DNA of 64,000 bases from a virus. Both the position numbers and the translations under genes were made by a program. Shown in pieces: positions 9,101-49,685 of the stretch. Under the pieces are notes generated by a model, which saw nothing but the letters and a program-made list of their open reading frames with translations, was not told the DNA's origin and made no database searches. The stretch is taken from the IMG/VR virus record IMGVR_UViG_3300003886_000002, one strand, 5' to 3'. Every line of letters begins with the position of its first letter. Positions within the stretch are counted from its first letter, which is position 1.

Positions 9101-9757
9101 ATAGAAGCGGGGGTCAGGCTGCCATAAGCGTGCTACGTAAGTTTCTTTCGGAAGGTCTACCCGCCCACCTGAGCCTGTCTCCCCGATACGCTGTATCTTG
9201 TTTCCGCTAGGCTTGAGTTCCTCTGTAGACAAGAACTCCCACACAATTCCTTCGTCTACACCTGTAAGCTCATTCTTTATTGGGGTGCCCACAAGGTAGG
9301 ATTCCCCTGCCGTGTACAAGTGTTCTGATGCACGTTTGATAAGTTCTTTCTTCCCCCCCTGCGGACCTACGAAGGCGTCCCATATGCTGTTAACCTTTTC
9401 ATCTGCCGTATCAACCCAGCCGAAATCATTGGCAAGGTCACGTTCTTGTGTCCGTATGACACACGACGATATTGCGTCTGATGTCAACTCAATCAGATAG
9501 CCCAGCTCGCCTATCACCTCTGCAAACCCATACGCGTCCCGCTGCCACGCCTCATTTGGGGTAAGGGGAATCGCAAGATCCCCAAGCTTGGTTAGGCGTC
9601 CCGGAGCAAAAATGGCAGACTGCCCCGGCTTGATGATTGCAAACTCTGCCCCTCGGCCCCGCATGGAACCGCTGCGGCGAAGTGGTCCTTGTCTCGGCAC
9701 GCGTGTAAACCTCTCCACATTCGTTACATCTAGAGCGTAGCCTACTCGGCGACGCAA
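6116..9757 (-). CDS. Portal protein with two inteins (about 709 aa after splicing)
   Basis: Extein motifs HLYTAGESYLVG, RLWQPDPRF...SAVK, RLATGMDAPPEV.G.GGLNHW|TSYNID resemble actinophage portals; sits upstream of the protease. Confidence 0.8.
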   Translation of the reverse strand: MRRRVGYALDVTNVERFTRVPRQGPLRRSGSMRGRGAEFAIIKPGQSAIFAPGRLTKLGDLAIPLTPNEAWQRDAYGFAEVIGELGYLIELTSDAISSCVIRTQERDLANDFGWVDTADEKVNSIWDAFVGPQGGKKELIKRASEHLYTAGESYLVGTPIKNELTGVDEGIVWEFLSTEELKPSGNKIQRIGETGSGGRVDLPKETYVARLWQPDPRFYHRAYSAVKRLLPICVAEGELVSTDLGLVAIQDVSVGDEVWAWDGGRAVLSPVSAVTANGDKPVLKVQAGVYTVRATADHRILATQHVVGDGGIVPSDDVQWVQVQELTGDHCIVTADEGAVGDGFAVTRVQSVEPDGVAPVWDLTVPGPANFIVQGVVVHNCREIVLLTQVVDAIAKGRLNAGIYYLPDEFSFGSFDETENDGADTDEIDEFSEEWIDQIKAPVEDRTSAASLIPLLMRGPAMIDGKPAKDLMGLVDLARGLDTLYQSLRQEALQRLATGMDAPPEVIGGKGGLNHWCCDDKTEVLTTDGWKGIDEFEVGDILLSLNHETGATEWRPSTDVYRADVVDLPMLSIEGDRHSSLTTMDHRWPTLHKIRENVTDVDGRTTSRVVGQDRIWTTSEELNSNDSLLVAAPSSDRPKEMKWSDELVEVLAWLWTEGNIRFKNRDQSPQVSICQSNKVNPFHVERIRNSLTLLLGNAKEHLTDGHVGRPTGGRRDPAWAEQIRPERPDMTDFRLNASAADLLVPFFSDPERKVLDLGFIHDLTASQIELFIDVSVRADGTVLSAGTMHITQSERDRLAPLELAAILSGRSTHIYETKQNGTMLSISRKTTFGLGRKEMSVESYTGTIWCPTVPPHHSVMIRRSGKVVYTGQTSYNIDADFIDKHIVPKGQKIAEFLTVAYLRPMLITCESMTEEKAARYRLNFDATLLTSRTDTGPAARGAYDRIAIKEASYLRANGFDVSDAPDEEERKRRTLEKLMFSEPILWGTRVIGELYPDLGDIFTPEDLTSPGNEARQRGQGPRAGDGGTDVDIPDSDTGQQVPEARGPSIPGGGGEAALLERLQTAADAALKRAIERASNRIISRLNGTDLPVKDEIRKHDKYEMLSVLSENDYSVMNLHKEDLMRDAWVNLEVDVTAWVREYFIVKGENPFMADERAKAASQYLSVVLTAHMATAFIKPIRTGVNGLSVPTGFVVGSLEKAYEVDVDPYQNND
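7142..8209 (-). mobile_element. Intein (356 aa) with LAGLIDADG-like domain, ending Gly-Gln
   Basis: CCDDKTEVLTTDGWK...LTTMDHRW...LAWLWTEG...VRADG...IWCPTVP...VVYTGQ|T. Confidence 0.88.
8618..9061 (-). mobile_element. Mini-intein (148 aa)
   Basis: CVAEGELVST...RATADHRI...VWDLTVPGPANFIVQGVVVHN|C; no endonuclease domain. Confidence 0.92.
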
Positions 9758-24805: not shown

Positions 24806-24992
24806 CCTAAGCCCCCACCGAACGGGGAGCGCCCAGGCGTTCCAGTCCAGATGACCGGGACCGTCCGTTTAGATGGTCGAGCGCCGCCCGCTGCCGCTAG
24901 GTCGAGCCCCACCACGCGGCCCCTCAGGGGTGTACACGTGCCCGTACGCGAAGAAAGGGCGCTCCCCTGCGCCCCTCCCTCTCTGTTGAGCC

Positions 24993-25133
24993 TCAGCCCT
25001 CGCGGGCCTCTGTGATGGCTGCACGGCGAGTGCTGGCCTTGCGGGCCTTCGCCTCAGCCTTGCGGGCCTTGCTACCCCACTCGGTCATTCCGGGGGTGGC
25101 CTTGCGAACTGAGGTGCTCGTGGGACTCTGCAT
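24993..25133 (-). CDS. Small basic protein (46 aa)
   Basis: MQSPTSTSVRKATPGMTEWGSKARKAEAKARKASTRR...; AGGAG RBS behind a cassette promoter. Confidence 0.65.
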   Translation of the reverse strand: MQSPTSTSVRKATPGMTEWGSKARKAEAKARKASTRRAAITEAREG

Positions 25134-25154
25134 GATCGTTGCTCCTGATCGGTG

Positions 25155-25253
25155 GTTGCTGACAAGGGAAGTATCTCACACTATCGCGCGCCCGGCAAGG
25201 GTTTTGTTTACCAAACACGCGCTAACAACCGCGAGCGAACACGTGTTCCAGTC
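25155..25253 (-). promoter_or_regulatory. Class I cassette promoter repeat with overlapping ACTGGA/SOS box
   Basis: Near-identical to 27572-27670 and 29287-29378; reads GACTGGAAC-N4-GTTCG...TTG(A/C)C.-17-(-10)-GTCAGCAAC on the minus strand. Confidence 0.85.
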
Positions 25254-25447
25254 CCGGGGGTTGCGCGGCGGCGCCTCTAGTGGGGTGTATCACCTCTCCA
25301 TGCCCTGGCAGGGGCCTACGTGCTGCCACACGTGCACTACACCGGCCTAGTTGGTCGGCTGCGCTTGAGTTGATACACCCCTCTAGAGGCACCCCCGGGA
25401 GGGGCCTAGGTTTCTGTTGCCACCCCCTAGGCGGGGCCGAGTCTTAG

Positions 25448-25576
25448 TCAGTTGGAGTACTCTACGAGCACGGCGCCGCCGCGGGCCTCCACCCATTCTG
25501 CGGCTCTGTCCTCTGCCGCTGAGGTCTTGCGAACCTTGCGGGCCTTCTGTCGCTCTGTGAGCTGACGCTTAGTCAT
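25448..25576 (-). CDS. Small basic protein (42 aa)
   Basis: MTKRQLTERQKARKVRKT...; TACTAT-6-GTCAG start and AAGGGGG RBS. Confidence 0.6.
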   Translation of the reverse strand: MTKRQLTERQKARKVRKTSAAEDRAAEWVEARGGAVLVEYSN

Positions 25577-25832
25577 TCGTTCACCCCCTTGGGACTTGCT
25601 GACATGATGATAGTACCCTACTGGCATGTCGAAAGGCGCGCGAGGGTATTACGGTTGCGTTACAGCATAAATGGAACGAACGTTACATAAATGCTACGCA
25701 TCCAGTCCCGCCCGATGCTGCACGGTGCACCATTGGATCGTAATGAGTCGAACGGCCTATAGTTACGGCTTGCACTGCTAGCCGCTAGCCCCTATAGTGA
25801 TTCATGTCAGCAACCTACCCACAGGAGACCCC

Positions 25833-26273
25833 ATGTCCATAACGTTCGGATTCCACACGGAAGGCCCCCGCGCCTCCGAAACCTTCTGCAATCACACCTG
25901 TCCCATCCCCGGGGGGTGCGATGAGCAACAGCTCTACTTCTACTGTGACCACATGCATGAGGCCACAGAGGCATGCCACAAGTGCGCTCTACGCGTCAAC
26001 CTGTCCAACAGTAACGCAGAGATGGTGCTAGAGCGCCTCGGTATCCCTTTCGACTACTGCGGCACCGTCGCAGCAGACGACATGCTAGGCCGCGCACTAG
26101 TGGCAAACGTAGGGCGCGACGACACCGGCGCAGCCCCCACGGAGGACACCTACGGGCATGCGACCATAGTCGAGTGCGGTGTACCTGAGGGCTACTACGA
26201 GAACGTTATGGGGCGCCTAGTGGCACTAGCGACAGAGGCCAAGTTCAACAACTTTGACATAGGGTGGTCCTAG
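25833..26273 (+). CDS. Hypothetical Cys/His-rich protein
   Basis: TTGCAC-17-TATAGT-GTCAGCAAC promoter; AGGAG RBS. Confidence 0.75.
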   Translation: MSITFGFHTEGPRASETFCNHTCPIPGGCDEQQLYFYCDHMHEATEACHKCALRVNLSNSNAEMVLERLGIPFDYCGTVAADDMLGRALVANVGRDDTGAAPTEDTYGHATIVECGVPEGYYENVMGRLVALATEAKFNNFDIGWS

Positions 26274-26365
26274 CCACTGCGCAACAACTCGCAAGCGTAC
26301 AAGCACGCCGCGCACAGCACCACAGCGGCACAGCACCCCACGCCTTCCAGTCCTACCGGCGGCGC

Positions 26366-26842
26366 CTACCGTGCGATAGGTGGAAGTATCCTAGGGTCGA
26401 CCACCTGCAAGACAGGTAGCCCTATCTCCCGCCACATATCTACCACTTGTTGCCGGTCGTCAACAACGTAGCGGACATCATAGAACGGGGCTATCTGCTC
26501 ACGGTATATCTCTTCTTTCACCACCGAGTCTCTACGTTGGTCACCACCTTTACGCATGATGAGCACGTCAATAGGTAGGGCGTGCTTACGTAGCCACGCG
26601 GTCATCAATAAGCGGCGGTGAGTGTCCCCTACATGGTCTCCCGCCGCACGGCCGCTTGTCATTATGCGCACCACCCCGGGCCGGATAGAACGCAACAGAG
26701 CCGCCACTACAGGTACAGGGGCATCAAAGGGTAGAGCTGCGTTGTATTGCCGCCACGCGCTACCCGAGCGGTCAAGCGGCGCAATGTACGCGACACTAGC
26801 AAGAGTGCCATCACGATCGAAAATAACGGCAGGGGGTCTCAT
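26366..26842 (-). CDS. HAD phosphatase resembling the T4 PNK 3'-phosphatase domain
   Basis: IFDRDGTLA, TSGR, MRKGGDQRRDSVVKEE, DDRQQVVDMWREIGLPVLQV. Confidence 0.9.
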   Translation of the reverse strand: MRPPAVIFDRDGTLASVAYIAPLDRSGSAWRQYNAALPFDAPVPVVAALLRSIRPGVVRIMTSGRAAGDHVGDTHRRLLMTAWLRKHALPIDVLIMRKGGDQRRDSVVKEEIYREQIAPFYDVRYVVDDRQQVVDMWREIGLPVLQVVDPRILPPIAR

Positions 26843-27552
26843 TGGGCTAGCGTAGCGCTCAACCTGAGCCCATCACGAAAGATATGCAAACGCGTCAGAG
26901 CCGGAATGTCGGCCATTAGGTCAAGTGTACCTAACGTGTTGTGAACCATCATACGCTCGACCTCATCGCGTACACGTTCTGCACTCACTAGCCCCAGCAT
27001 GCGGGCCGCATCACGGCTGCATAGCGCATCCCAAGTATCGACCGTAGGCTCTAGGCCCTTGGTTATGCAGAAGCGCAACCCGCGTAGCACGCGTAGCCCG
27101 TCCTCTGCTATGCGCTCCGAAGGATTACCAACGAACCTGAGCACCCCGTTACGGAGGTCGTCTTGACCGCCGTGAGGGTCGATAAGGTCCCCCGTGAGAG
27201 GGTCGCGAGCCATAGCGTTCACGGTGAAATCTCGGCGTGCCAGATCATCGGCTAGCGTGCCGGGCTCCACAAAATCAGGGCGGCGACCGTCGCTACCGGC
27301 GGAATCTTTACGCGCCAGCACAAAATCTGCATCCCGAGTACGTTCCCGCAACACGTGCCCTTTCGGCACCCCTGCGCGGATAGTGACAAACTCAGGATGT
27401 TCCACGTGCAACACGAAACCCTCGGCGACAAGGTGTGAGCGCATGGCTTGGAACGAGGGAGCGATAACGGCAAAGTCGATATCCTTTGTAGGGATACCCA
27501 TGAGGTCATCGCGTACGCACCCCCCTACCTCAAACATTTTGATGTCTGCCAT
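26839..27552 (-). CDS. tRNA nucleotidyltransferase (class II CCA-adding enzyme), short form
   Basis: VGGCVRD, KDIDF, DLARRDFTVNAMA, EDGLRVLRGLRF, VSAERVRDE. Confidence 0.93.
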   Translation of the reverse strand: MADIKMFEVGGCVRDDLMGIPTKDIDFAVIAPSFQAMRSHLVAEGFVLHVEHPEFVTIRAGVPKGHVLRERTRDADFVLARKDSAGSDGRRPDFVEPGTLADDLARRDFTVNAMARDPLTGDLIDPHGGQDDLRNGVLRFVGNPSERIAEDGLRVLRGLRFCITKGLEPTVDTWDALCSRDAARMLGLVSAERVRDEVERMMVHNTLGTLDLMADIPALTRLHIFRDGLRLSATLAQ

Positions 27553-27571
27553 GATCCCCTCCGGGCCGTTG

Positions 27572-27670
27572 GTTGCTGACAGAAAAAGTATACAGCACTA
27601 TCGCGCGTCCGTCAAGGGTTTTGTTTACCAAACACGCGCTAACAGCCGCGAGCGAACACGTGTTCCAGTC
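27572..27670 (-). promoter_or_regulatory. Class I promoter repeat with SOS-like box upstream of the CCA/phosphatase operon
   Basis: TTGACG-17-TATACT-6-GTCAGCAAC; CGAACACGTGTTCC at 27653-27666. Confidence 0.85.
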
Positions 27671-27731
27671 GCCCCGGGGCGGTGTGGGCGCGGCTGTAGG
27701 GTGGGCCGTGAGGCCCGCCCCTACTGCTCTG

Positions 27732-27926
27732 TCAAGGCCCGAATATGTCGCTCGGGTCGTAGGTGAGGGCCTCGCCGCAGTGCTGGCACGTAGTAGCGAG
27801 AGTGTCCTTGTGGCCCTTGTAGTTGACGGCGGCGGCCTCGTCGTAGGTCTCCTTCTCGCAGTGGTAGCACTCGGCGGTAAATGCCACCTCGAAGGGGTAA
27901 TCATCTGTCGCGGGGTAAGCGGGCAT
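27732..27926 (-). CDS. Small Zn-ribbon protein
   Basis: CYHC...CQHC; AGGAGG RBS within a 55-bp repeat (27930-27984 identical to 28936-28990). Confidence 0.7.
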   Translation of the reverse strand: MPAYPATDDYPFEVAFTAECYHCEKETYDEAAAVNYKGHKDTLATTCQHCGEALTYDPSDIFGP

Positions 27927-28162
27927 CAAGACCTCCTGAGGTCTAGGGTTGCTGACAAGGAAAGTATCTCACACTATCGCGCGCCTGTCATGGGCCGAAA
28001 GACCCTACAGGGCACGGCCGAACGGCCCACATGTAAACGTTCCCGTCACCGCGGCGACGGGCATCCAGTCCAGGGGGGTTTAGATGGTTCATGTAGACGG
28101 TTCGCATGGCATTAGGCCGAATGGCCTATGGTGTTGTAGCTCCCCGTGTGAGATACTTTCCT

Positions 28163-28374
28163 TGTAGCAGAGATACACCTTGGCCTAGTGTGAACAGGCC
28201 CCCTCCCCAGGTAAGGGGCGCAGGGAAGCTGCGTAACGTACCCGGCGCCGTGGACCGACAGAACACGGACCGCCTAAGTCTGAGGCGGACAGAATCGGAC
28301 CCTTCCACCGGTTAGTGGCGCAGGGAAGCTGCGTAACGTGCCCGAGATGCCCCGGTGATCTGCACCGGGGCATC
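28163..28374 (+). ncRNA. Candidate ncRNA-2 with two 28-nt hairpin repeats 100 nt apart
   Basis: Class I -10 context GTGTGAGATACTTTCCTTG at 28146-28164; GGCGCAGGGAAGCTGCGTAACGT(A/G)CCCG at 28217 and 28317; terminal hairpin 28346-28374. Confidence 0.6.
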
Positions 28375-28419
28375 GTCGCGCCAACGGTAATGGCCTTCCA
28401 GTCTCCCGGGGGTGGGCGC

Positions 28420-28457
28420 GGCGGTAGGGTCAGACTGTATGGTCTGACCCTACCGCC
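28420..28457 (-). terminator. Perfect 16-bp hairpin terminator
   Basis: GGCGGTAGGGTCAGAC-TGTATG-GTCTGACCCTACCGCC, just past the stop at 28462. Confidence 0.85.
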
Positions 28458-28461
28458 ATCG

Positions 28462-28930
28462 CTAAAGGTTGTAGCGGTCCTCATCCTCCAGCCATGGGTT
28501 GCGGTGCTCGCGCCACGGGGTGCCGTACAGGTCTATCTCCTCATCCTTCCACGCGTCATACGCGTTATCGTCGTCAAAGACGATAGGGCGCCCGGTGGTG
28601 AGGCTCCTGTAGGTTTCGCTCACGGTTGCACCTCACATGCGGCTATGAACAGCTCGCGGTTGAATCGGCTACTGTCTGCTTCACAGAAGTCCGCGAGTAC
28701 GTGAGCCAGCTTTTCGGGACCGATACCCTGTCCAGGTATGCTGGCCACGATAGCGGCTAGCCTTTCGTAGTGCTTACGCGTCATGTCTTGACCTCCCGGT
28801 TGACTGCAACAAGTGCCTCGGCCTCTCGCCGGTCGATACGCAAATACTGTACCTTTGGATGGTGGTACATCTGCCCCCTCAACCGCTCCACAACACTTCG
28901 CACCGTCTCCCGTTGCCTCTCTATGTCCAT
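28462..28930 (-). CDS. Three coupled small ORFs (28781-28930, 28620-28784, 28462-28623)
   Basis: Hand translation; ATGA/GTGA overlaps; middle ORF MTRKHYERLA...SRFNRELFIAAC. Confidence 0.7.
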
Positions 28931-29054
28931 ATCTTGACCTCCTGAGGTCTAGGGTTGCTGACAAGGAAAGTATCTCACACTATCGCGCGCTTGGTAAGGG
29001 CCGAAAGACCCTATCGGGGGTGGCCCGGGGGTGAGCGATCCAGTACAGGTGTAC

Positions 29055-29288
29055 CGAATCGGGCCGGGCCATCGGGTCGCCTACCATCCCCGCATCGGTG
29101 CACCTCCGCGGTTACTCTCGGCTACCGTCTAGCCCGTTCTCCCCGTTCGCTCACCTACTTGGCACATCCATCCACTACCCTTCATTCAGGGATCGCCTAC
29201 CATTCCCAGGTAGGACGTGATCGTTAGCCGTCAGGGGTAGTTTCATATGGCGTGCTTGATGGCACCTCGGGGGTCCCGATTCGTTTAC
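29055..29288 (-). ncRNA. Candidate ncRNA-3 (about 230 nt)
   Basis: TTGACG-17-GAGGCT class I promoter; terminal stem CGAATCGGG/CCCGATTCG; two hairpins sharing the loop ATGGTAGGCGA. Confidence 0.65.
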
Positions 29289-29456
29289 AAGGAAAGCCTC
29301 TCACATTATCGCGCGGCCGTCAAGTGTTTTGTTTACCAAACACGCGCTAACCGCCGCGAGCGAACGTGTGTTCCAGTCACCGCAACTGTGGGGGCCTTCC
29401 AGTCCTTGTGGGTGACGCGCGTGTGAGGCCGACCGTTAGGTCGACCTCACTAGCGT

Positions 29457-30785: not shown

Positions 30786-31163
30786 CTACGTGAGATACTG
30801 TACCATGTTCTCCAGGTACTCCATCACATCACGGTCAGCGGTCCGGATCGTAGCCCCGTCGAACCAATCGGAGAAACGGTACGCCGCGGATGTCTCTGCG
30901 AGTTCCCACCCGTAGGTGCCGCGCTCGATCTCCACCTCCAGCTGATCGCCGGGGCCACCCGTGGACAGGAGCACCACCATAGTGGTATGTGTCTCTATCC
31001 CTAGAGCGTATTCGGCGATCCTATCAAGCGCGTCGTCGGAGGTTACGTCTTCCCCGTCGATCACGCCACCATCCTGATTGATGACGGCGTGCATATGGGC
31101 AAGGTCCTCTATACGGCTACGCAAGTGCCCTTCGATGCGGTCATCGCATGTAGGGTTGCTCAT
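30786..31163 (-). CDS. Acidic protein, paralog of 35109-35489
   Basis: MSNPTC.DR..GHL.SRI.DL...STGGPGDQLE shared; own promoter; AGGAG RBS. Confidence 0.8.
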   Translation of the reverse strand: MSNPTCDDRIEGHLRSRIEDLAHMHAVINQDGGVIDGEDVTSDDALDRIAEYALGIETHTTMVVLLSTGGPGDQLEVEIERGTYGWELAETSAAYRFSDWFDGATIRTADRDVMEYLENMVQYLT

Positions 31164-31366
31164 GCGTTCATCTCCTTTTCGTAGGTGATCTGCTGACACT
31201 CATACCCTCACACATGCGCGCGAAGATGTCAACCCCCGAAACGAAGAATCTTCCACACCCCAAAACCCATAGAACCACCCAGACTGGATCACCACACAGC
31301 ATCCGAAACGTGTGGGACTGGATACCCGATGTCGTAGCGGCCGCGGGGGCTGCTACGGTTACCGCG

Positions 31367-33511: not shown

Positions 33512-34108
33512 CTACATGTTCGAGAACACGTACACGGTGCCCGAGGCTACGTGAGTCCAGATGTCGCCGCCCATCTCCCACTCGCGGCCCATGCGCTCCC
33601 AATCCACGTAAGGGGCGAGCATGTCCGTATCGCTGGGGGTACCATGCATCCCGCAGTAGGTGTCATAGGTGTAGTCGCCCAACGAGTCCCACTCGCCGCG
33701 GTAGGCGTCACAGAACAGCTCAGACCACTCCACGGGGTCGTTTGCCTCGTCTTCGCACATACTGTGCCAAGCTGAGAATGCCACGGGGTCATGCTCCGAG
33801 AGGCACCCGGCGAGAGCCACGATAGTCGCTAGCGACTCATGCTCTCCGATACGGATAGAGGCGAACCCCTCATAGTCGTGGATCGCCCACTCTTCTGCAC
33901 CGGGGCGAGGGGAGAACTTGAGCATGCACTCTATGTCCTCCGCCAGATCATCCACGTCTGCCGGAATGTCAAGCCACTCGCCGTACATCTCCCCGTTGTT
34001 GTAGTCGCTCAGACTAGCGACATAGATACGTGGTATGCTGCAACCCCGGGAGTGGCCCGGTTCGGGTACCCCTCGTGGATTGCTGATGGTGGTCTGTAGG
34101 GTGCTCAC
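33512..34108 (-). CDS. ardA: Antirestriction protein ArdA
   Basis: RIYVASLSDYNNG.MYGEWLD, EEWAIHDYEGF, YVDWERMGRE; strongly acidic. Confidence 0.92.
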   Translation of the reverse strand: MSTLQTTISNPRGVPEPGHSRGCSIPRIYVASLSDYNNGEMYGEWLDIPADVDDLAEDIECMLKFSPRPGAEEWAIHDYEGFASIRIGEHESLATIVALAGCLSEHDPVAFSAWHSMCEDEANDPVEWSELFCDAYRGEWDSLGDYTYDTYCGMHGTPSDTDMLAPYVDWERMGREWEMGGDIWTHVASGTVYVFSNM

Positions 34109-35108: not shown

Positions 35109-35489
35109 CTAGAACGGGAGGCGTCCCACCATGGACTGTAGATAGTCCATGACTGCATCGTCGTTGGTTCGACGTGTTGCCCCGTCCCCCCAATCCAGGA
35201 ATCGGTAGATGGCGCTGGTGTCGGCCAGCTCCCACCCGTGCCCGTCGTTGATGACTTCGATCTCTAGCTGATCGCCGGGGCCACCCGTGCTGATGGTGAC
35301 GATCAAGGTGGATCGGAGATCAACTGCTAAGGCGTAGTCCTCGATCATGTCGAGCACCTCATCGGAGGTCACCTCTTCCCCCTCGATGACGCCGCCATCT
35401 TCCCCTAGGGCCTCTTGCATCTGCTCAAGGTCCCGGATTCTGCTGGCCAAGTGACCTGCTACCCGATCTTCACATGTAGGGTTACTCAT
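35109..35489 (-). CDS. Acidic protein, paralog of 30786-31163
   Basis: Shared motifs as above; GAGGAGG RBS. Confidence 0.8.
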   Translation of the reverse strand: MSNPTCEDRVAGHLASRIRDLEQMQEALGEDGGVIEGEEVTSDEVLDMIEDYALAVDLRSTLIVTISTGGPGDQLEIEVINDGHGWELADTSAIYRFLDWGDGATRRTNDDAVMDYLQSMVGRLPF

Positions 35490-35796
35490 GCGTTCACCTC
35501 CTCTAGTGACTTGCTGATAAGGGAAGCGTCTCACACTATCGCGCGGCCGTCAAGGGGGATCTTTAGAATCTTCCAACAACAGAATATGTCGACACTCCAC
35601 CTACACGCTCGGGGAACCATGGTGCAGGCAGAACCATCGTGACTGGATGCCAACCCACCGGGACTGGATAACCTTTATGGTTGTTTGGGCTGTGGGGGTT
35701 GTGTTGGGTGGAGAATTTTGAGAAACCCCTTGACTGCCGCGCGAGCATGTGGTTTACTTTTGCTGTCAGCAACAACCCCACAGAAGGAGATGACCT

Positions 35797-38112: not shown

Positions 38113-38361
38113 TCATCGTGGCAGCGGCGCCCAGGAGCGTCCGTCCTCAGGGCTGTAGCCGAGAAAGGTGAGGTCAGCAGTGTTGCCGCTGAAGGTGGCG
38201 TGACCGTTCGTGAGCCCGTGGTAGGTGCACACGACCCCGACAGGCTCGTCAGGATCGTCAGGGTCATCCACTCCTGTGCCGACACCACCGCTGATGTGGG
38301 CGCCGGAAAGGATGATGCGCTGCCCCACACGGGGCAGGTTGCCGGGGATAAGTGGTCTCAT
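38113..38361 (-). CDS. Hypothetical protein
   Basis: TTGACA-16-TATAAT-GTCAG promoter; AAGGAG RBS. Confidence 0.7.
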   Translation of the reverse strand: MRPLIPGNLPRVGQRIILSGAHISGGVGTGVDDPDDPDEPVGVVCTYHGLTNGHATFSGNTADLTFLGYSPEDGRSWAPLPR

Positions 38362-38471
38362 GTGGTTCTCCTTTGGTTGGTTCTACCTGACAAATGCCAT
38401 TATACCCCTTGGGGGTGACATGTCAAGTGGGAAGTTTATCTAACCGCGCTGACCTGTCTAGTGCTGTCGGG

Positions 38472-39545
38472 CTAGGCGACACGACACGTCATGAGCAAAA
38501 CCTCGCGGTCCGTGCCGAACCAAGGCTTGAGCGCACCGGTTCCCACAATCGTCGGGCCGTCATGGTCCAACATGTCGGCGAGGAACCTGGGGTTGAATGC
38601 ACCTGGATCGTCGGCACCCGTAACCTGCACCGCGGGGCCGGTGAGGGTGGGTCCATCGGCTTCGCTCAGCGTCATGCGCCACACGTCGCCATATTGGACG
38701 ATCCGTACCGGTACGGCCTTCCCGACCTGCTTCGCAGAGTCCCGCAACCACGTAGCGGAACCCTCCGGGAACGTGACAGACGTTACCGGCTCAGTGTCGA
38801 GCAGACCCAACGCGGTGGCGTAGATGCCTTGGAAGTTCGGATAGCTGCCTTCGGTGAGGCGAACAGTCACAGTCCAACGCTTCGCGTTCACTGTGAGATG
38901 TGTGTCGTCGCGGTGTGCGTGCAACGGCTCACCGAACTTGGCGGCACACTGGCCGAGCAGCTTGAGTGCCGCGGCGGGCACCATCATCTCAGTCTCGGCC
39001 GTGTGGTCAATGTCGACACTGTGGCAGCGGAAACTGTCGTTGGCGGCAACCACCGAACCGGTCCACGCTACTGTGCAGAGGATGGGTCGCGACTTGTCAG
39101 TCGAGACGGCCCACGCCACGTTGCCCATGGCATCCAATACGCTGAGTGGCACCGGCTCATATTCGGCCGCTTCACTCAGGAGCGGCCAGTCGGACGCTGG
39201 GAGTGTGCGCATCGTCACAACCCCGTTGCGGCCGACGATCGTCGCATCCTCCAGACCAGACGCGCTGAGCGCGACTGTCTGCGGTGCACGCTTGGTCGGC
39301 TTCGCACCTTTCGCCGCGTCGCGAAGCAACTTGGCTGGCAGAACCATCGCCGGGCACGGCTCGGCACCCAACAGGATGACGACTGTTGTTGCCAGGTCCG
39401 TCGCGGCGAGCTTGGTCCCGTCAAAGCAGACGTGGCGCGTCGTGATACTCGCGTCGTTGTTGGCGACGCGGCAACAGATCGTCGCCGCGTCCCGCAGCGT
39501 CGCGGCGTCCACGACGGTTGTAGTGGGTGTTTCGGTCATGCTCAT
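38472..39545 (-). CDS. DNA polymerase III beta-clamp-like protein
   Basis: AATDL, SRPILCTV, RLTEGSYPNF, FNPRFLADML, VLLMTCRV are typical DnaN segments. Confidence 0.82.
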   Translation of the reverse strand: MSMTETPTTTVVDAATLRDAATICCRVANNDASITTRHVCFDGTKLAATDLATTVVILLGAEPCPAMVLPAKLLRDAAKGAKPTKRAPQTVALSASGLEDATIVGRNGVVTMRTLPASDWPLLSEAAEYEPVPLSVLDAMGNVAWAVSTDKSRPILCTVAWTGSVVAANDSFRCHSVDIDHTAETEMMVPAAALKLLGQCAAKFGEPLHAHRDDTHLTVNAKRWTVTVRLTEGSYPNFQGIYATALGLLDTEPVTSVTFPEGSATWLRDSAKQVGKAVPVRIVQYGDVWRMTLSEADGPTLTGPAVQVTGADDPGAFNPRFLADMLDHDGPTIVGTGALKPWFGTDREVLLMTCRVA

Positions 39546-39627
39546 CAGTCTCTCTTCCTGTAGTGAGTGCCCTAGCCGCATCGCGGGTGCGGTGACCGGC
39601 GGTCCGGTCTAGGGCGATCGGGTCAGG

Positions 39628-40546
39628 TCAGTCCCACTCGACCCACACTTTGACGGTCTCGTCATCCTGCGCCGCCCACCATGAGCCGGTCGCGACGGCG
39701 CCCCCCTCAGTGATCGGGATGATGCCGCCGGGGGCACGGCCGGACGCAACGCACTGCTCGGGTGTCGCTGTCCCTAAGGTCGCTGCCCACTCGGGGAGGT
39801 CCTCGTCGGTATAGGCGAGACGGAGAACCCCGGTGCGCGGCACCTCGGCGATCACGTCGCCGTCGGGGGTGACGGCACGCAGCGCTATCACCGTGTCATC
39901 TGGGTAGCCGATCAACAGCGCGGCGAGGGAAGCGAACCACGCCTCGCGGGGGAGAGCGTCTGCGATGTCGGCGGTGGACGGCTGCCACCAGTCACGGTCC
40001 GTGCATTCCTCGACATACGCGGTGATCTCCATGCTCTCATCTCTCTCTGTAGACAGTGCCCTAGCCGCATCGCGGGTGCGGTGGCCAGCAGACTGGCTCT
40101 AGGGCGTTTCGCTCGGGTCAGTCCCACTCGACCCACACTGTGACGGTCTCACAGTTCTGCTCGGTCCACGAGCCCTCGTCGGCGACGCCACCATCCTCGG
40201 TGACGGAAATCAGACCACCGGGGGCGGCGGCTGACGCTTCGCACTGCTCGCGGGTGGCGTGGCCGAGATCGGCGGCCCACTCCGGCAGGTCCTCTGAGTC
40301 ATCGGAGACGTTGAGGGCGCCGCTGCGCTGCACCTCGGCGATCACGTAACCCTCGGGGGTGACGGCTCGGGCGGCGGTCACAGTGTCGTCTGGGCAGTCG
40401 CGGAGTTCGTCTCTGAGAACGGTTCCCCACACGTTGGGGTGGTAGGCGCTTGCGGTGCGAGTGGCCTCCCACTCTCCGCCGCTGCACAGATGCACGCGAG
40501 CGGATACAGCGTTCTCCGCGGTTCGGACAGAATCGTTGGTACCCAT
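39628..40546 (-). CDS. Tandem paralogous ORFs (40118-40546, 39628-40032)
   Basis: Shared PDDTV.A.RAVTP.G.VIAEV.R.G.L...EDLPEWAA.LG.AT.EQC.AS..APGG...ETV.VWVEWD. Confidence 0.8.
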
Positions 40547-40761
40547 AGATGCTTCCCCTTTTGTTGACTACCTGACAGATATCACTATACACCCTGGGGG
40601 TGACACGTCAAGTGAAAAGTTTCGCTAGACATGTCACCCCTATCTGCTATAGTGCAGCACGTCGGAACAACCCGACCACGAGCAACCGGAAAGACAGGTG
40701 AGGTCACAGTCGTCGGGGGGCCACAACCCCCCGCACCTCACCCCCGAGAAAGGAACCCACG

Positions 40762-41153
40762 ATGATCGCCGCACCCCACCCACTCGAAGCGTCCAACAGG
40801 ACCACAAAGGCCCGCAGATTCGTCGCATTCCTAGACGAACACGCAGGAGCACACGTGAGCGCCGCCACCCTCGAACAGCTCACCACAGCCCAATGGGTCC
40901 ACATCACAACCAAGATGAGTGAAGCGACAGGGCACGACGAAAACATCCCATCCCCCGCCACCATCGCCGCCATCATCGCCTACACCCGTGCACGCGAAGA
41001 CATGGCAGCAACCTACCTGGCAGACCCATTCGAGGGCCTGACATGATAAAACGCTACATCACGTGCCCCGAATGCGGACGCAAGTTCGACCTACTCGATG
41101 AGACCGACACACAAGAATGGCACTACGGCCACGACTGCGAGTCACAGGGATGA
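40762..41153 (+). CDS. Two small ORFs (40762-41046; 41043-41153 with CPEC...HDC)
   Basis: Class II promoter; AAAGGA RBS; ATGA coupling. Confidence 0.65.
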
Positions 41154-41204
41154 GCGAAAGCCTCCCTCTAGCTCATCCAGTCTCCCCCGCCCGGGGGCGG
41201 GCCG

Positions 41205-41396
41205 TTACCACTCGACGCGACCCCGGCAGGCTCGTTTAGATGTGCGGGCTTTGGTCTTGTTGTCGAGGGTTCGGGCTGCCCCGCGGTACATCTGTGGGGT
41301 TCCACCGGAGGCGTAGTGTTCTTCGCGCTGGCGGCCACGTACGTTGGCGAGGTCCGCTTGGTTCGACTGTCTATGGGTTTTGCGCTTCTTTGCCAT
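41205..41396 (-). CDS. Small basic protein
   Basis: TTGACA-17-TAGGGT-GTCAG promoter; AAGGAG RBS. Confidence 0.7.
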   Translation of the reverse strand: MAKKRKTHRQSNQADLANVRGRQREEHYASGGTPQMYRGAARTLDNKTKARTSKRACRGRVEW

Positions 41397-41539
41397 GGGG
41401 TCGCTCCTTTCGGTGGACTGGCTGACAGGGCAACCCTATATGCTAAGGGCTAGCGTGTCAAGAGATATTTCCCCTTGACGTGTCATCCCCAGGGTGTATA
41501 GTGATATCTGTCAGGTAGATCCAACCAAAGGAGCACAAC

Positions 41540-42066
41540 ATGACCTATCAAGAGGGCGATGTGATCGCATACCGCACCTTCGGCAACGGACCGCCACGTC
41601 TAGTGGAGGTCGAGTCGAAGGAAGAGGACGTGAAGAACGGGCGCCCCGGGTTCAGCGGCACCTGCATAGCGGGTGGAGCTGATGCTGGCATGTCCGTCTG
41701 GGGTTACGACCACCAGATCACCCGCGTTGTACGCAGATGAGCACCACCACCCAGGAGATGGTCCTAGACAGGATCGAGGCGCTGCTGAAAGACCAGCGCT
41801 ACGATCTCATCAACAACTCCGAATACGGCAACACCGGGAGGCTACAGGCAGTCAGGCCCGGGGCGCTTGGATCGGACGTATCTGTCTCCTACGACTTCGA
41901 AAACGGTTACTGCTGGTTCAGACGCATCTACGGAAAAGATGTGTCATGCGAGGCAGTCGATCAGAACACCACATCAATGGTCCACTACACCGATGCAGAA
42001 CTGCTGACATGCGTCTACAACGTTGCGGCATACCTCATCCGCGGAGACGACAAGGAGTCAACATGA
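41540..42066 (+). CDS. Two small ORFs (41540-41740, 41737-42066)
   Basis: TTGACG-16-TATAGT-GTCAG promoter; ATGA coupling. Confidence 0.7.
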
Positions 42067-42638
42067 CTGATGCAACGCAAGACCTCATGGACGCACTCGG
42101 GGGCGACGAGGTCACAGGACCCATCGCAGACCCCGACTCATCCACAATCGACACCGTAACCGAATGGGTCGCGCAGGTGATCCGACTCGATGAACGCGAA
42201 GCGGAATACGCGGCCGCCCACAAGGCTGCCGTGTCAAGACTGACTGCCCGAAAGACCGACAGGCTGGTAACCATAGATCAGCAGCGCGGTTACCTCATGG
42301 ACGCCATAGAGACGTTCCACCGCGCCCGCCTCGCACAAGACCCCGAGGCCTTCACGATCCACACCCCAGCAGGGGTGCTGAAGTCCACGAAGAAGCAGGA
42401 TCAGTGGATCGTGGACGACGACCAGGAGTTCACGAAGTGGTGTGTCACGAACCTGTCAGAAGCGGTCACGTTCCCAGACCCGACAGTCAACAAGGCCGCC
42501 GCCAAAAAGGCACTCAAGGTTGCAGCTGAACGGTTCAGCGATCAGCGTGTAATCGTAAACGGGGAATCTGTCCCCGGGCTCAGTTTCATCAAGGCAGACA
42601 AGGTGAAGGACCGAAACTTTCGGGTTGTCCCCGAATGA
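42063..42638 (+). CDS. Gam-like host-nuclease inhibitor
   Basis: Long helical segment then TIHTPAGVLKSTK...W..DD...W...VNKAAAKK...GESVPGL, a Mu Gam-family pattern; AAGGAG RBS. Confidence 0.75.
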   Translation: MTDATQDLMDALGGDEVTGPIADPDSSTIDTVTEWVAQVIRLDEREAEYAAAHKAAVSRLTARKTDRLVTIDQQRGYLMDAIETFHRARLAQDPEAFTIHTPAGVLKSTKKQDQWIVDDDQEFTKWCVTNLSEAVTFPDPTVNKAAAKKALKVAAERFSDQRVIVNGESVPGLSFIKADKVKDRNFRVVPE

Positions 42639-42892
42639 GCATTGATGTGACAGAATCCCCGACTTATGCCCGGACGATAGAGTTCCGCACAGAAGATGGG
42701 GCCGGGGCAGACTCAAAGGTGCTGCGGGAAGCAGCAGATTGGCTCGACGCAGGGAATGCAGCAGCAGGAAACATCTACGACGTGTGGATCGTAGAGGGGC
42801 TATCCATCTCAGCGCCCCAAGGGGTGTTGACGCTGCAACTGTTCATCTTGCCTGTCGCCCAAGGTCAATCTACTCACGACGCAGAAGGCTGA
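42635..42892 (+). CDS. Hypothetical protein
   Basis: ATGA-coupled 85-aa ORF. Confidence 0.6.
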   Translation: MSIDVTESPTYARTIEFRTEDGAGADSKVLREAADWLDAGNAAAGNIYDVWIVEGLSISAPQGVLTLQLFILPVAQGQSTHDAEG

Positions 42893-43800
42893 ACAGTCTC
42901 GCGTCTCTGCTGTACGATCCAACCTTTGTTCGCTTTCGCGACAGCACGAGCATCTTTCAGTACCCTAAACTTCTGTTCTACGCTGCCCGCCTCTTGCGCA
43001 GGAGGCACCGCGTAGAAGTAGATACGGGTAGGTGTCCCCATGGTGATAGGCCCTTTCTCCGATGCGGCACGAACGGCGGCACGTTTCTTGCATCCACATC
43101 CCATAGCCCCCATCGTATATCACCACAGCGACCCAGACACGTTGTGTCGATCCTGCAAGTCACGAACAGAGTCAGGGTGACACAACTCCGCAACGTACAG
43201 ATTGTGTGCGGGGCGACGCAACGTCACATCTCTTCCATCATCATCAACCCCATACACCCAACACGTCCGGTTGTAGCCACCAACACCCGTCACAGATTCA
43301 GACCCATCGCTCTGCAACCTGACTACTGTAACCCAACCCCCCTTGGAGCCATCCAGTCGTCGGAGCAGGTTGTCCAGGTATCTGTCTTGGGGGCGTAGGT
43401 GGCCGAGCATGGAGTAACCGTCGGCCTCTGCGTTGTGCAGGATGGTGCTCGGGTCGTTGTCCATGGGGGGATGCTACTGTGTCATCGCTTCGATGGTTTC
43501 GGATGCCCCGGGGGTCATGGTGAGGTCCCATTCGTCGGGGTCGAGGGCTTTCCATTCGTCACCCCATACGCTCAGGGGGTGTGATCCGAGTCGGATGGCG
43601 GCTTTGTCTGCGGCGTTCCATGTGATCTGTCCACCGCCTGCTCGCCACCGCTTGACGGTGCGGTAGGCCACTCCGATCATATTGGAGAACACCCGGTCGT
43701 TGAATGTTCCTTCGGCTTTGCCGCCGCTGAAGCGTTCCTCGCAGGATGATAGATGGAAGGCGTATTCCTCTAGGGGTTCCATCGGGAGTGTCTGTGCCAT
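42874..43800 (-). CDS. Three ORFs: HTH protein 43474-43800, then 43120-43464 and 42874-43113 (MGCGCKK start)
   Basis: First ORF has GVAYRTVKRWR HTH; TTGACA-17-GAGACT-GTCAG promoter. Confidence 0.65.
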
Positions 43801-43954
43801 GTCGTTCTCCTTCGGTTGTGACTATCTGACAAGTGCAGTCTCGCGCATCGGGGGCTGGGTGTCAAGAGGGAATCTTAGAAGTCTCCACTCGACACGTCAC
43901 CCCTATCTGCTATCATCTAGCATATCAGCAGGTCGACAACCAAAGGGGAACAAC

Positions 43955-44572
43955 ATGGAACCACTCGCTACAGAGCAACACGACGCAGGAGTCACGGTCG
44001 AAGTCCACTACGACCAAGACTCCTGGGACCCACGCGGGTGGGACAACATCGGCACAATGGTCTGTTGGCACCGCCACGCAGACCTAGGCGACGAGACAAT
44101 CAACACAGGTGACTACGCGGACGCACAAGACATGCTGCGCCAAGTCACAGGGGACGACGACCCGATCATCCTGCCCCTATGGCTCTACGAGCACTCAGGC
44201 ATGACCATGAGGGCCGGAGATGCCAACCCCTTCCATGACCCATGGGATTCAGGCCAAGTCGGATTCATCTACTGCACACGCCAGGACGCCAAGACAGAGT
44301 ACGGCGACACCCAGGACAGCGCAGAGCGTGCCATCGCCTACATGACCGCAGAAGTTCAGGCATACGACTCATGGCTACGCGGCGACGTATACGGATGGGT
44401 CGCACAAGGCCCCGACGACACCTACGAGTCATGCTGGGGATACGTCGGATGCTACGATGAGTGCCTCACAGAAGGTCGCGACGCAGCACAAGCGATGGTA
44501 GACGACATCGCATCCGCCACTGCGGCAGCATGGCTCGAATCTCACTTCACAATGTTCGCAGCACCACTCTGA
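43955..44572 (+). CDS. Conserved acidic hypothetical protein
   Basis: DPRGWDNIGTMVCWHR..DLGD, LYEHSG, WDSGQVGFIY, YDSWLRGDVYG, SCWGY; class II promoter. Confidence 0.8.
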   Translation: MEPLATEQHDAGVTVEVHYDQDSWDPRGWDNIGTMVCWHRHADLGDETINTGDYADAQDMLRQVTGDDDPIILPLWLYEHSGMTMRAGDANPFHDPWDSGQVGFIYCTRQDAKTEYGDTQDSAERAIAYMTAEVQAYDSWLRGDVYGWVAQGPDDTYESCWGYVGCYDECLTEGRDAAQAMVDDIASATAAAWLESHFTMFAAPL

Positions 44573-44815
44573 TTACGGACCCGAACCTTCGCATACGTCT
44601 CCCACACCTTCACCACACGGTGCCTACAGGTGCAAGACCCAGCACGCTCTATCACCCCTAGACGCACCTGCGCATCCACAGCAGCCCCATACGGGACCTT
44701 GTCCTGCCGCCCATCAGGAGCGTTACCCATCGCAAGGTGATAGTCACATTCGACCCCATACCCCAACGGTGCGCCCCTACCCCTCGAAGGGTCAGTCGTG
44801 TACCCGTACGGCATC

Positions 44816-45031
44816 TCAACCCACCGTAGCCATCGTGCCAACAAAAACGCGTGTGACCGCCACACTGTGCAGCGTCAGAGCCATCTCCTCAGCCGCATCA
44901 GGACTGAACCCAAGCTCCACAGCATCAACAAGATACTTGTGGCACATATTTATAATCGCGTCCAGAACCAGCTCCGCTGTCTGATCCAGTCCTAGTATCT
45001 GCGTCAGGTTGATTGTGTATTCTTGTTCCAT
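44816..45031 (-). CDS. Hypothetical protein, probably leaderless
   Basis: TGTCATCCCC...TACAAT lies 8 nt before the ATG. Confidence 0.55.
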   Translation of the reverse strand: MEQEYTINLTQILGLDQTAELVLDAIINMCHKYLVDAVELGFSPDAAEEMALTLHSVAVTRVFVGTMATVG

Positions 45032-45100
45032 GGGTGACTATTGTATCGTTGGGGGATGACACCTGGCTCCTAGAGATGTCACGACTGTCTGTTAGAGTGC

Positions 45101-45537
45101 ATGACGATGAGCGACAAAAGGGACATCACATACCTGTACCCCGTAGATGAGGACACGACTTTAGAGGTGGGGGACAGCTTCGGGTTGAGGGGGGAACGCG
45201 GTTCACGTTACAACTACATTCGCACCGTACACACCAGTGACTCGGAATGGGTAGATTGTTACGGGGGGGCGCGTGGACGTGGACAGTTTCGCTCCGTGTT
45301 CCCTGACCGCATCATCAAGGTGAGGAAGAAAGCTGAGTGATTGGTAAACGGTTGTCATGTACGCGACACGGCGACAGGACATGCCCAAGGTGCCATAGGG
45401 CATGTACCCACCTGATCGTCCCCTACTACGTGTCGGCCTGGGGGGACGAGGGTCTCTGCGGTAAATGCTGTGAGGATGCCTGTGCATGGTTCGACAGACT
45501 AGGGTGGCCTGACCCTGTAGGGGGTGGGGGTAGGTGA
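45101..45537 (+). CDS. Two small ORFs (45101-45340, 45337-45537)
   Basis: GTGA coupling; first ORF has a WVDCYGG..G..QFRSVFPDRI pattern. Confidence 0.6.
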
Positions 45538-45579
45538 CCCACCGCGCCTTTCATGTCTCCCCTTTACGAGAGGGTTGCT

Positions 45580-45945
45580 CTACAGTAGCCCTCCTGTGTT
45601 GTGAACCCACCGTTCGATCTCCCGCACTGAGGCACGAGTCGGCGGGGCAGCATGTCGCATCGAAGTACAATCAGGGCAATACTCGTCGCCATTCTTCCCC
45701 TGCACCATATGCGAGTTATCACAGGTGTCGCACTCCCCCACCATCGCGTTCCCCACGATGGTGCGGCTGGCGCTTTCGATCGCTTGCGACAGGCTCCTGA
45801 CTAGGGTGTGCGCGTCTGGGACAGACATGACTCCCAAGTCGATCCGGTTACTCTCACCAGACCCGACAGGCGAAAGCGATGCTTCGACTCTGATTAGATG
45901 ATGCGCCGCTGTGACACAAATCGTGACTATCTCCTTGTCGTTCAT
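45580..45945 (-). CDS. Hypothetical protein with CxxC...CPDC
   Basis: ATGA-coupled to the upstream LbH protein. Confidence 0.65.
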   Translation of the reverse strand: MNDKEIVTICVTAAHHLIRVEASLSPVGSGESNRIDLGVMSVPDAHTLVRSLSQAIESASRTIVGNAMVGECDTCDNSHMVQGKNGDEYCPDCTSMRHAAPPTRASVREIERWVHNTGGLL

Positions 45946-46910
45946 ATCGTTTCTCCTGCCGCGATGTCCCCGGTCACATGTGCGTCACCGAGCACCCGGG
46001 CGTCGCCGTGCACCCAAGCACTACTGAACACCCGAGCGTTGCCGGACACCCGGGCGCCACCGTACACCAGCGCGTTGTCGTACACCTGAGCGTTGCCGGA
46101 CACCTGAGCGTTGCCGAACACCTTGGCGTTTCCGTGCACCGCAGCGTCGCCAAACACCCGGGCATCACCGTACACCCGAGCGTTGCCGAACACCTGAGCG
46201 TTGCCGAACACCCAAGTATCACCGAGCACCCGGGCGTCGCCGTGCACCCAAGCACTACTGAACACCCAAGCGTTGCCAAACACCTGAGCGTCAGGGCCGA
46301 TTGCCGCAGTGCCAGCCACTGTGGCGCTGTCCGCGACCCACCCACCCTCAGACTCATCAGGGTTGACGTGACGGCGCGCCGCCACCGGACCTTCACCGAA
46401 GTCATGCATGACAACGTTTCGATATGTGGATGCCCGCAGCTGTGCTAGACATCCCTGTAGAACCCCGGCCATCTCCGCGATCGACGCGTATGCATTTCGC
46501 ATCTTCTTTACGTCGCCTCCGGCTACAAGCTCATCTACAAGTTCGCTCACCACATCTGGAGATACGATCATACGGATTGCTTCCGCTGTCTCGTCTGTGG
46601 CGAACCATGCTGTCTCGCCGTCCACAAGGGGCCGTTCTCGACTGAATGCCGCTACCGCTGTGCGTATGTTGCCTACGGTTATGTCACTCGGCCCGATAGG
46701 GGTTGAATCGTGGTCATACGGCATCCACCCGTCCGTGCATCCGGCGAACGGTGCGAGTGCTGCCTGTAGACATTCGATCTTTGTAGCTGCGTCACGGAGC
46801 AGCGCTGCGTTTGCCCGCAGATCCAGAGCGCTAGTGCCTACGGCCGTTCTGGCCTGTGTGATTATCCCGTGGGCCTTGAGGTGTAGCCGTTCGATCAGGT
46901 TGTCGTTCAT
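45942..46910 (-). CDS. Protein with C-terminal left-handed beta-helix hexapeptide repeats
   Basis: HDFGEGPV..RHVNPD.SEGGWVAD followed by (G N/D A Q/R/W V F/Y/H)n repeats. Confidence 0.85.
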   Translation of the reverse strand: MNDNLIERLHLKAHGIITQARTAVGTSALDLRANAALLRDAATKIECLQAALAPFAGCTDGWMPYDHDSTPIGPSDITVGNIRTAVAAFSRERPLVDGETAWFATDETAEAIRMIVSPDVVSELVDELVAGGDVKKMRNAYASIAEMAGVLQGCLAQLRASTYRNVVMHDFGEGPVAARRHVNPDESEGGWVADSATVAGTAAIGPDAQVFGNAWVFSSAWVHGDARVLGDTWVFGNAQVFGNARVYGDARVFGDAAVHGNAKVFGNAQVSGNAQVYDNALVYGGARVSGNARVFSSAWVHGDARVLGDAHVTGDIAAGETI

Positions 46911-47042
46911 GGGGTCTCCTTAGGTAGGGGATTCTCAACAGAGAGGATACTAGCAGGTGGGGGTGACAGCACATCGGCTTCTTCCTGTCACCCCCACCTG
47001 CTATAGTCCCCCCCGTCAGGTAGTCAACTAAAGGAGCAGACG

Positions 47043-47600
47043 ATGAACAAAGTCATCGGATTCTACGGATCGAAAGGTGGACAGGGGTGCACAGTCACCG
47101 CGTGTGCCTATGCGCTGTCAGCATCCCTAGACGCCCCCACACTTCTGGTAGACGCGTCAGACAACGGGGACGTGTTACACGTCCTAGGGCTATCAGACTC
47201 CCAGGAACAGACAGAGGTTACTGAGTCCCTCATCTACGCAGAAGGGCTCTCTGCCCTGACAGACCCACAGTACCGCACTCACGAGTCCATCGTTGTAGAC
47301 TTTGGGACCACTGCAATCCCTGAGAACTTCCCCGGTGACCTGATGCTAGTGATCCGACCGTGCTACCTGGCAGTACGCAGAAGCGCAGAATCGGCGACTG
47401 TCCCAACAGGAGTCATCGTCCTTGACGAACAGGGTCGAGCACTGACACCAGCAGATGTCGCTAAAGTTCTAGAGACCCCAGCGTGCACGGTCATCAAGAC
47501 AGACCCCGCAGTGGCACGCGCCGTAGACGCGGGCGTGTTCGCTACCCGAGTCCCAAAGTCCCTACAGGGGCTACGCCAAGCGATGGCAGGCAACGGATGA
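47043..47600 (+). CDS. MinD/ParA-like (Ssd/CpaE-type) P-loop protein
   Basis: Deviant Walker A GSKGGQGCT; LLVDAS; VVDFG; DPAVARAVDAG. Confidence 0.75.
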   Translation: MNKVIGFYGSKGGQGCTVTACAYALSASLDAPTLLVDASDNGDVLHVLGLSDSQEQTEVTESLIYAEGLSALTDPQYRTHESIVVDFGTTAIPENFPGDLMLVIRPCYLAVRRSAESATVPTGVIVLDEQGRALTPADVAKVLETPACTVIKTDPAVARAVDAGVFATRVPKSLQGLRQAMAGNG

Positions 47601-47821
47601 AAGCCAGGACAGTCGCGACAGTCACCACAATCGGCTACCTGCATTGCATGGACTGCACTCTCGACACAGATGAGCTGTGCGGCACCTACGACATGCACAA
47701 CTGCGTGCTGGAAGATGTAACATGCGACAGGTGTGGACGCGGATACCAACCCATCCTTGGCGACGGCCTCAAATCATGGGACATCCACCCCGGCGACTCC
47801 ACAGAACGCATGGTCTCGTGA
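47597..47821 (+). CDS. Small Cys-rich protein
   Basis: ATGA-coupled; CMDC...CDRC. Confidence 0.6.
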   Translation: MKARTVATVTTIGYLHCMDCTLDTDELCGTYDMHNCVLEDVTCDRCGRGYQPILGDGLKSWDIHPGDSTERMVS

Positions 47822-49643: not shown

Positions 49644-49685
49644 GGTGGCCTCCTATGGGAGTTTGATCGGATAGGGAACTTGTCC

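Follow-up and report, generated by a model that had tools for sequence, protein, structure and literature searches.

A predicted small RNA with two near-identical units in a putative actinophage genome, and its possible role as a bivalent decoy

The IMG/VR virus record IMGVR_UViG_3300003886_000002, from a large uncultured phage, contains, at positions 28146–28374 of a 64-kb stretch (the window, which is the whole of the DNA analysed here), a cassette in which a 28-nt repeat occurs twice behind a promoter-like sequence. This locus raises the question of whether the cassette is a gene for a non-coding RNA and, if it is, what such an RNA would do. A first-pass annotation had read it as a plus-strand RNA that binds a protein, with CsrA, Cas6 or a ToxN-type nuclease as the partner; a protein-binding, plus-strand non-coding RNA remains the best reading, but the three named partners are unsupported.

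The genes of the window and the features of the cassette are listed in Table 1. The host is likely an actinobacterium of the Acidimicrobiia, because Microthrixaceae, Acidimicrobiales and Acidimicrobiia are among the taxa of the best SSB matches (61–65% identity) and the best cultured-phage matches are phages infecting actinobacteria. The closest relative of the CCA-adding enzyme has 60% identity, and contigs whose SSB is about 70% identical are among the relatives of the phage. The phage promoter motif has no match in IMG/VR, and a close relative of the phage was therefore not found. Between 25 and 36 kb the genome forms a row of modules, mostly on the minus strand, each consisting of a repeated promoter (a TTGACG-like −35, 17 bp, and a GATACT- or TATACT-like −10), a ribosome site and a small gene. 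From 25.1 to 35.8 kb, small genes of unknown function follow promoter modules of one family with at least nine members, and the CCA-adding enzyme, the polynucleotide kinase phosphatase (PNKP) domain and ArdA are encoded among them. This is a host-takeover region, and these three genes around the cassette are of counter-defence or host-takeover types.

Elsewhere in the window, two minus-strand genes (2497–6123 and 6116–9757) encode portal-like proteins of 1,200 residues each, the first with an N-terminal 2H phosphoesterase (LigT-like) domain and the second with a weak intein match. Small genes are duplicated at 30786–31199 and 35109–35534 (proteins 57% identical) and at 39608–39910 and 40098–40400 (71–74% DNA identity). 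A further promoter-like repeat family, with GGGGGTGACA between the boxes, is spread over 38358–51558.

Table 1. Features of the cassette and its surroundings (positions in the window).
Feature	Position	Strand	Remarks
Portal proteins, DnaB, SSB, methyltransferases	64-kb window		Large-phage gene content
PNKP domain	26366–26842		Near the cassette
CCA-adding enzyme	26839–27552		Near the cassette
Near-palindromic operator-like site TAGGCC-GAAT-GGCCTA	28113–28128		Ends at the expected start of the −35
Promoter core: extended −10 (TG 28149–28150, GATACT 28152–28157), predicted +1 G 28164	28146–28165	+	Exact promoter-core copy
Predicted small RNA, about 211–215 nt	28164–28378	+	Ribosome site and start codon absent after +1
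Hairpin GGCCT...AGGCC	28182–28200	+	Ahead of unit 1; pair probability 0.96–1.0
Repeat unit 1 (53 nt)	28192–28244	+	C-rich tract, hairpin, invariant core 28217–28239, tail ACCCG
Unit 1 hairpin CCCC-AGGTAA-GGGG	28205–28218	+	Adjoins the 28-nt repeat
Spacer hairpin CCGCCT...AGGCGG	28270–28288	+	Pair probability about 0.85
Repeat unit 2 (53 nt)	28292–28344	+	Hairpin, invariant core 28317–28339, tail GCCCG
Unit 2 hairpin CCAC-CGGTTA-GTGG	28305–28318	+	C-G to A-U compensatory change relative to unit 1
12-bp terminal hairpin without U tract	28346–28374	+	Likely 3′ end; z −4.7 on plus, −5.8 on minus
16-bp hairpin closing convergent minus-strand operon (small ORFs 28462–28930)	28420–28457		Possibly a two-way terminator
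Neighbouring non-coding RNA	29279–29061	−	After promoter 29329–29286
ArdA	33512–34108		Same region as the cassette

The cassette is intergenic and begins with a copied promoter core. Its 20 nt are an exact inverted copy of the gene promoters at 27955–27974 and 28961–28980, in agreement with the −10 context that had been noticed on the plus strand, and the predicted +1 at 28164 is placed by alignment with them. The match breaks off abruptly at 28146, and the sequence at the −35 position (TGGTGT) is poor, as had also been noticed. A consensus promoter scan does not list the site, and its −10 begins with G. The accompanying suspicion that the promoter may be dead is lessened, though not removed, by the TG of the extended −10. 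In mycobacteria a TG-extended −10 can mask the −35, and the +1 G six bases past the −10 matches the strong promoter described in the same source (PMC1616969); by analogy, the extended −10 may offset the poor −35 of the cassette. The ORFs that overlap 28164–28378 have no Pfam match.

The operator-like site upstream is one of six copies of GG(C/T)C(A/G/T)TTCGGCC, a pattern derived from these same six sites; all are located between 28004 and 29749 and all are upstream of promoter copies. Because all six read on the minus strand, the copy at 28113–28128 may instead serve the divergent promoter at 27997. Two pairs of copies are 23 bp apart, beside promoters with a poor −35, and the six are candidate activator sites. 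A candidate operator is the octamer GACTGGAA, which occurs seven times on the minus strand in 24847–29404 and once on the plus strand at 37202; most copies fall in the interval from a gene end to the promoter that follows.

The strongest argument for the cassette as an RNA gene is a conserved neighbour behind the same promoter family. Among eight promoter copies checked, six have a ribosome site and start codon after them. The remaining two lead to the cassette and to a neighbouring non-coding RNA, and both of these start with GTA rather than GTC. The neighbour matches 202 cultured-phage records, 201 of them Mycobacterium and about 200 of them from cluster C mycobacteriophages, and it is also conserved in seven IMG/VR stretches, with a core of GAAAC-N-CCCTGACGGCTAACGA and CCCTGAAYGAAGG. 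It is intergenic in phages Issimir and Dandelion, a profile built from five relatives recovers it in the window at E 1.7e-27, and the window copy has no Rfam match at E≤5. The promoter family thus does precede a conserved non-coding RNA, and the cassette is likely to be a small RNA gene because the two of eight promoters that lack a ribosome site lead to it and to this conserved RNA. The two RNAs are unrelated by profile, the duplex between them is no better than shuffles (88 of 100 as good), and the cassette RNA was not found in the phages carrying the neighbour, several of which are fragments.

The duplication itself is plain. The 28-nt repeat, GGCGCAGGGAAGCTGCGTAACGT(A/G)CCCG, is at 28217–28244 and 28317–28344, and its copies are separated by 72 nt and start exactly 100 nt apart, as first described; nothing was found that gives this spacing a meaning. 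Even with three mismatches allowed, the exact 23-nt core has only two matches in the window, and none of 100 shuffles yields one. The longest exact repeat in 1000 shuffles of 28146–28374 is 11 nt, compared with the actual 23, and the repeat is far beyond chance. The repeated unit is really 53 nt long, with 44 of 53 positions identical (83%) and eight of the nine differences within the first 25 positions, and the two units are separated by 47 unrelated bases. Widening the repeat to a domain of 80–95 nt is not significant (p 0.08–0.33), and nor is the sequence likeness between the hairpin ahead of unit 1 and the spacer hairpin that it resembles (p 0.08–0.33). With nine substitutions placed at random, a compensatory pair in the short hairpin arises in about 3% of 20,000 trials; an unchanged run of 23 nt is similarly rare (about 3% of 100,000 random-substitution trials). 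The compensatory pair and the unchanged core are thus modest indications that selection has acted on an RNA. Reshuffled module repeats are abundant in the region.

These two signs (p about 0.03 each) bear on the reading that no functional plus-strand RNA exists, and that the cassette is either a local duplication behind a promoter fragment lacking a −35, or an element between two gene modules that serves as the 3′ trailer of a minus-strand transcript or acts at the DNA level. The abundance of reshuffled module repeats and the stop of the promoter match at 28146 favour it, as do the lack of a homologue in the collections searched and the z of −0.5 for the body of the RNA. Against it, besides the signs of selection, are the exact 20-nt promoter core with its TG and a layout like that of the conserved neighbour RNA, and we consider it rather unlikely.

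Folding is less informative than the duplication. Only the terminal hairpin, which was correctly reported as the 12-bp end of the cassette, folds better than shuffles. The RNA had been described as multi-hairpin, and several hairpins are indeed predicted, but the body without the terminal hairpin folds at shuffle level (z −0.53, 27 of 100 shuffles as good) and neither strand beats shuffles. Similarly, the sequence of the CGCAG/CTGCG stem assigned to the repeat is present, but its probability in the full-length ensemble is only 0.09–0.22. In that ensemble, which is pseudoknot-free, the probability of the first hairpin is 0.8 in unit 1 compared with 0.02 in unit 2. In an alternative fold the C-rich tract is paired to AGGG, the CGC bulge to GCG and the GGU loop to the final RCC; all 14 of these pairs are kept in both units. 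A four-helix model (CCYU/AGGG, CCMC/GKGG, GGU/RCC and CGC/GCG) has 28 of 28 cells paired, compared with 35–54% when slid, and the changes between units are one compensatory and two wobble; it was picked after the fact, its helices are 3–4 bp, and with two rows the shuffle control cannot discriminate (250 of 500). One-sided changes between the units fit helices on either strand. Since no homologue was found, the evidence of covariation comes from two paralogous copies and from models selected afterwards.

Four short helices intact in both units, together with purine-rich invariant linkers, would also suit an undescribed class of tandem aptamer or ribozyme, in which double-pseudoknot units bind a small molecule or cut themselves. 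This is quite improbable. Apart from the length and post hoc choice of the helices, there is no Rfam match and no downstream gene to regulate, and descriptors for HDV-like, hammerhead, twister and pistol cores find nothing in the cassette. A loose hairpin-ribozyme pattern has one plus-strand match, without the loop-B core.

A scan for U-tract terminators does not list the terminal hairpin. The 3′ edge of the predicted RNA meets a module-boundary repeat at 28375–28403, beyond which the 16-bp hairpin is possibly a two-way terminator. This hairpin and another at 27697–27732 are long, G+C-rich, have GTAG...CTAC feet and no U tract, and are located at gene ends; the GTGA loop and a G-U pair of the latter favour the plus strand, though the genes are on the minus strand.

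The cassette RNA belongs to no family tested, and is uncatalogued in Rfam 15, in the literature as searched for phage CsrA sponges and in four of the nine supplementary files of a viral structured-RNA catalogue (PMC10690425), from which the cores of both the cassette and its neighbour are absent. Rfam 15 has no match at the gathering threshold in the whole window; near the cassette it gives eight matches at E≤10, mostly to terminal hairpins and with a best E of 0.75, and no family at E<1 over the repeats. ARAGORN predicts no tRNA or tmRNA gene in the window. Cultured-phage records contain no match for the cassette or either unit, the spacer matches 19 such records at E 2–5, all within genes, and plasmids have no cassette match. 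Searches of IMG/VR with repeat patterns return either nothing or one and the same single match, and a loose pattern returns 25 matches with the stems kept in none and only one at E≤0.05, in which the pairs are broken. The one match in metagenomes is identical in sequence to the single IMG/VR match. This nearest look-alike is a single match, sits where a 112-codon ORF ends and likewise has CCAGGTA upstream; it was judged to be chance and rejected as a homologue.

A covariance model (R1) run on 48 phage records matches none of five, none of five and one of 38, the one being the same look-alike; the set of 38 was drawn from the first 81 loci, all of which were covered by nhmmer. At a per-genome threshold of E≤0.05, R1 matches 4 of 151 host-type genomes in one sample and 2 of 150 in the other, which is below the roughly seven expected by chance, and the whole unit is kept in none. 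BLAST against 401 genomes gives no match to the cassette and eight weak matches, all outside it. Pfam finds none of the partner domains CsrA, Cas6, ToxN or Nop in 50 and 70 ORFs (partly overlapping sets) from the 64-kb window of the 158-kb contig. From its sequence, the cassette RNA is probably a real orphan phage small RNA.

The first proposed partner was CsrA/RsmA, whose site motif, CANGGANG, is matched twice in the cassette RNA. CsrA is a dimer with two sites (PMC4005645), it is present in some actinobacteria, and CANGGA has three sites in the RNA (p 0.0015, or 0.025 with one unit removed). As a sponge, the RNA would also resemble CsrB, RsmZ and RsmX, which are small RNAs with repeated ANGGA hairpins and a terminal hairpin for which titration of a dimeric protein is proposed (PMC4005645). 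However, CANGGANG occurs 49 times in the window, and GGA is not enriched in the cassette RNA (6 observed, 5.1 expected, p 0.40). The register that RsmE binds best, and the high-affinity form, places ANGGAX in a hexaloop on top of a stem (PMC4005645). In the cassette this register is predicted at −0.9 kcal/mol compared with −9.6 kcal/mol for a 6-bp register that pairs its first A, a cost of 8.7 kcal/mol, and the G's of the GGA motif are mostly paired (modelled probability of being unpaired 0.13–0.23 in the full-length RNA). RsmZ differs in having eight GGA motifs in 127 nt in ANGGAX loops on stems (PMC4005645), whereas in the cassette GGA is at chance level, the A and N of the motif are predicted to be paired, and what recurs is a unit of 53 nt that extends beyond the loop. 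Whether the host has csrA had been posed as a check, and the answer is divided: 39 of 201 Actinomycetota genomes carry the gene, as do only 37 of 151 from the likely host order, that around the best SSB match. For actinobacterial CsrA, control by FliW rather than by small RNAs is what PMC4682653 proposes, and no precedent for a phage-encoded CsrA sponge was found in a literature search. The CsrA reading is kept because CANGGA is above chance, but it is very unlikely.

Cas6 was the second partner, acting on an RNA anti-CRISPR or mini-array whose repeats would be cut by the host enzyme. Rfam holds CRISPR repeat families, and none of them is found over the repeats at E<1. An 18-mer of the repeat has seven lone matches in the genome collection, none in a CRISPR array, and a 27-mer with three mismatches allowed has none in 401 Actinomycetota genomes. 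The comparison with CRISPR repeats that the first-pass annotation had proposed thus turned up nothing alike in Rfam, the genome collection or host-type genomes. The repeat is 28 nt, hairpin-bearing, intergenic and just 3′ of a promoter, as are solitary repeat units, which are likewise phage-encoded small RNA decoys (PMC10651486). But RNA anti-CRISPRs are defined there by likeness to CRISPR repeats, and the cassette has two long units (53 nt, with gaps of 47–72 nt) rather than one repeat, which makes the crRNA mimic highly improbable.

The third suggestion, an antitoxin mimic that neutralises a ToxN-like nuclease, fares no better. CptI antitoxin repeats are longer than 34–36 nt, toward 45 nt. 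Repeated, possibly pseudoknotted units directed against a host protein have a phage precedent in pseudo-ToxI of phage TE, alongside type III antitoxins (PMC5086642, PMC3475682), and short helices compatible with a pseudoknot are found in both units, although these are two sequences only. Repeats of ToxIN-family antitoxins are tandem and 34–36 nt, and the toxins cut A-rich sites (PMC5086642). The cassette instead has a longer unit, its units are split by unrelated bases and form no head-to-tail array, and AAA, AAAU and AAAA are all absent from 28164–28374, leaving no A-rich cleavage site. We give this reading very little probability.

An RNA that silences host mRNAs by pairing at their ribosome sites, through a seed in two copies (either the C-rich tract or the tail UAACGU(A/G)CCCG), is improbable. 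C-rich seeds occur in Gram-positive small RNAs, and the C-rich tract of each unit can pair with purine-rich ribosome sites. This tract is, however, the part that differs between the units and is also able to pair internally; perfect matches elsewhere in the window reach 13 nt at most, which is at chance level, and none of nine tests for an antisense to 16S or 23S rRNA is below p 0.19. Unit 2 (28312–28339) resembles the 16S rRNA sequence AGTGGCG...GGG...GTAAC near position 79, with p 0.005 in one of 18 tests. This likeness is not significant after correction and is missing in unit 1, and rRNA mimicry was rejected.

The reading that we favour is a bivalent decoy for a host protein, to which we give a probability of about 0.4. 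The cassette would be the gene of a phage non-coding RNA of roughly 210 nt, transcribed from 28164 by the host RNA polymerase and presumably early. Each of its two near-identical units would display an identical binding site, so that the RNA could sequester a putative dimeric RNA-binding protein of the host. Each unit may fold as two hairpins in a row or as a compact double pseudoknot, both of which fit both copies. The decoy is the simplest reading because there are two invariant 23-nt cores, no downstream gene, and counter-defence genes around. For a sponge, two sites is a small number. A protein of defence or regulation is a likelier partner than CsrA, Cas6 or a ToxN-type nuclease.

A bolder version of the model is a long shot: double-pseudoknot units in a tandem RNA that would be the first of a new class of phage counter-defence RNAs, a bivalent decoy or aptamer against a defence protein or immune signal of the Acidimicrobiia, with a second actinophage RNA next to it that is widely conserved and uncatalogued.

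The general reading as a phage non-coding RNA has parallels in actinophages WC1, D29 and L5, whose intergenic regions include highly transcribed RNAs of unknown function (PMC10986025). As described there, these are, like the predicted cassette RNA, non-coding actinophage transcripts, one of them in the early arm. They differ in having been seen by RNA-seq, whereas the cassette is known from its sequence and has no sequence match to cultured phages.

As an orphan of a single genome, the cassette carries moderate weight, and experiments would start more easily from the neighbour RNA, which cultured mycobacteriophages carry. The cassette adjoins anti-restriction and tRNA-repair genes. The phage RNA decoys considered here copy a host RNA, either a CRISPR repeat or an antitoxin; the cassette RNA would act like them, yet it copies neither of these models. 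If the decoy reading is true, it points to another host protein that phages neutralise with RNA.
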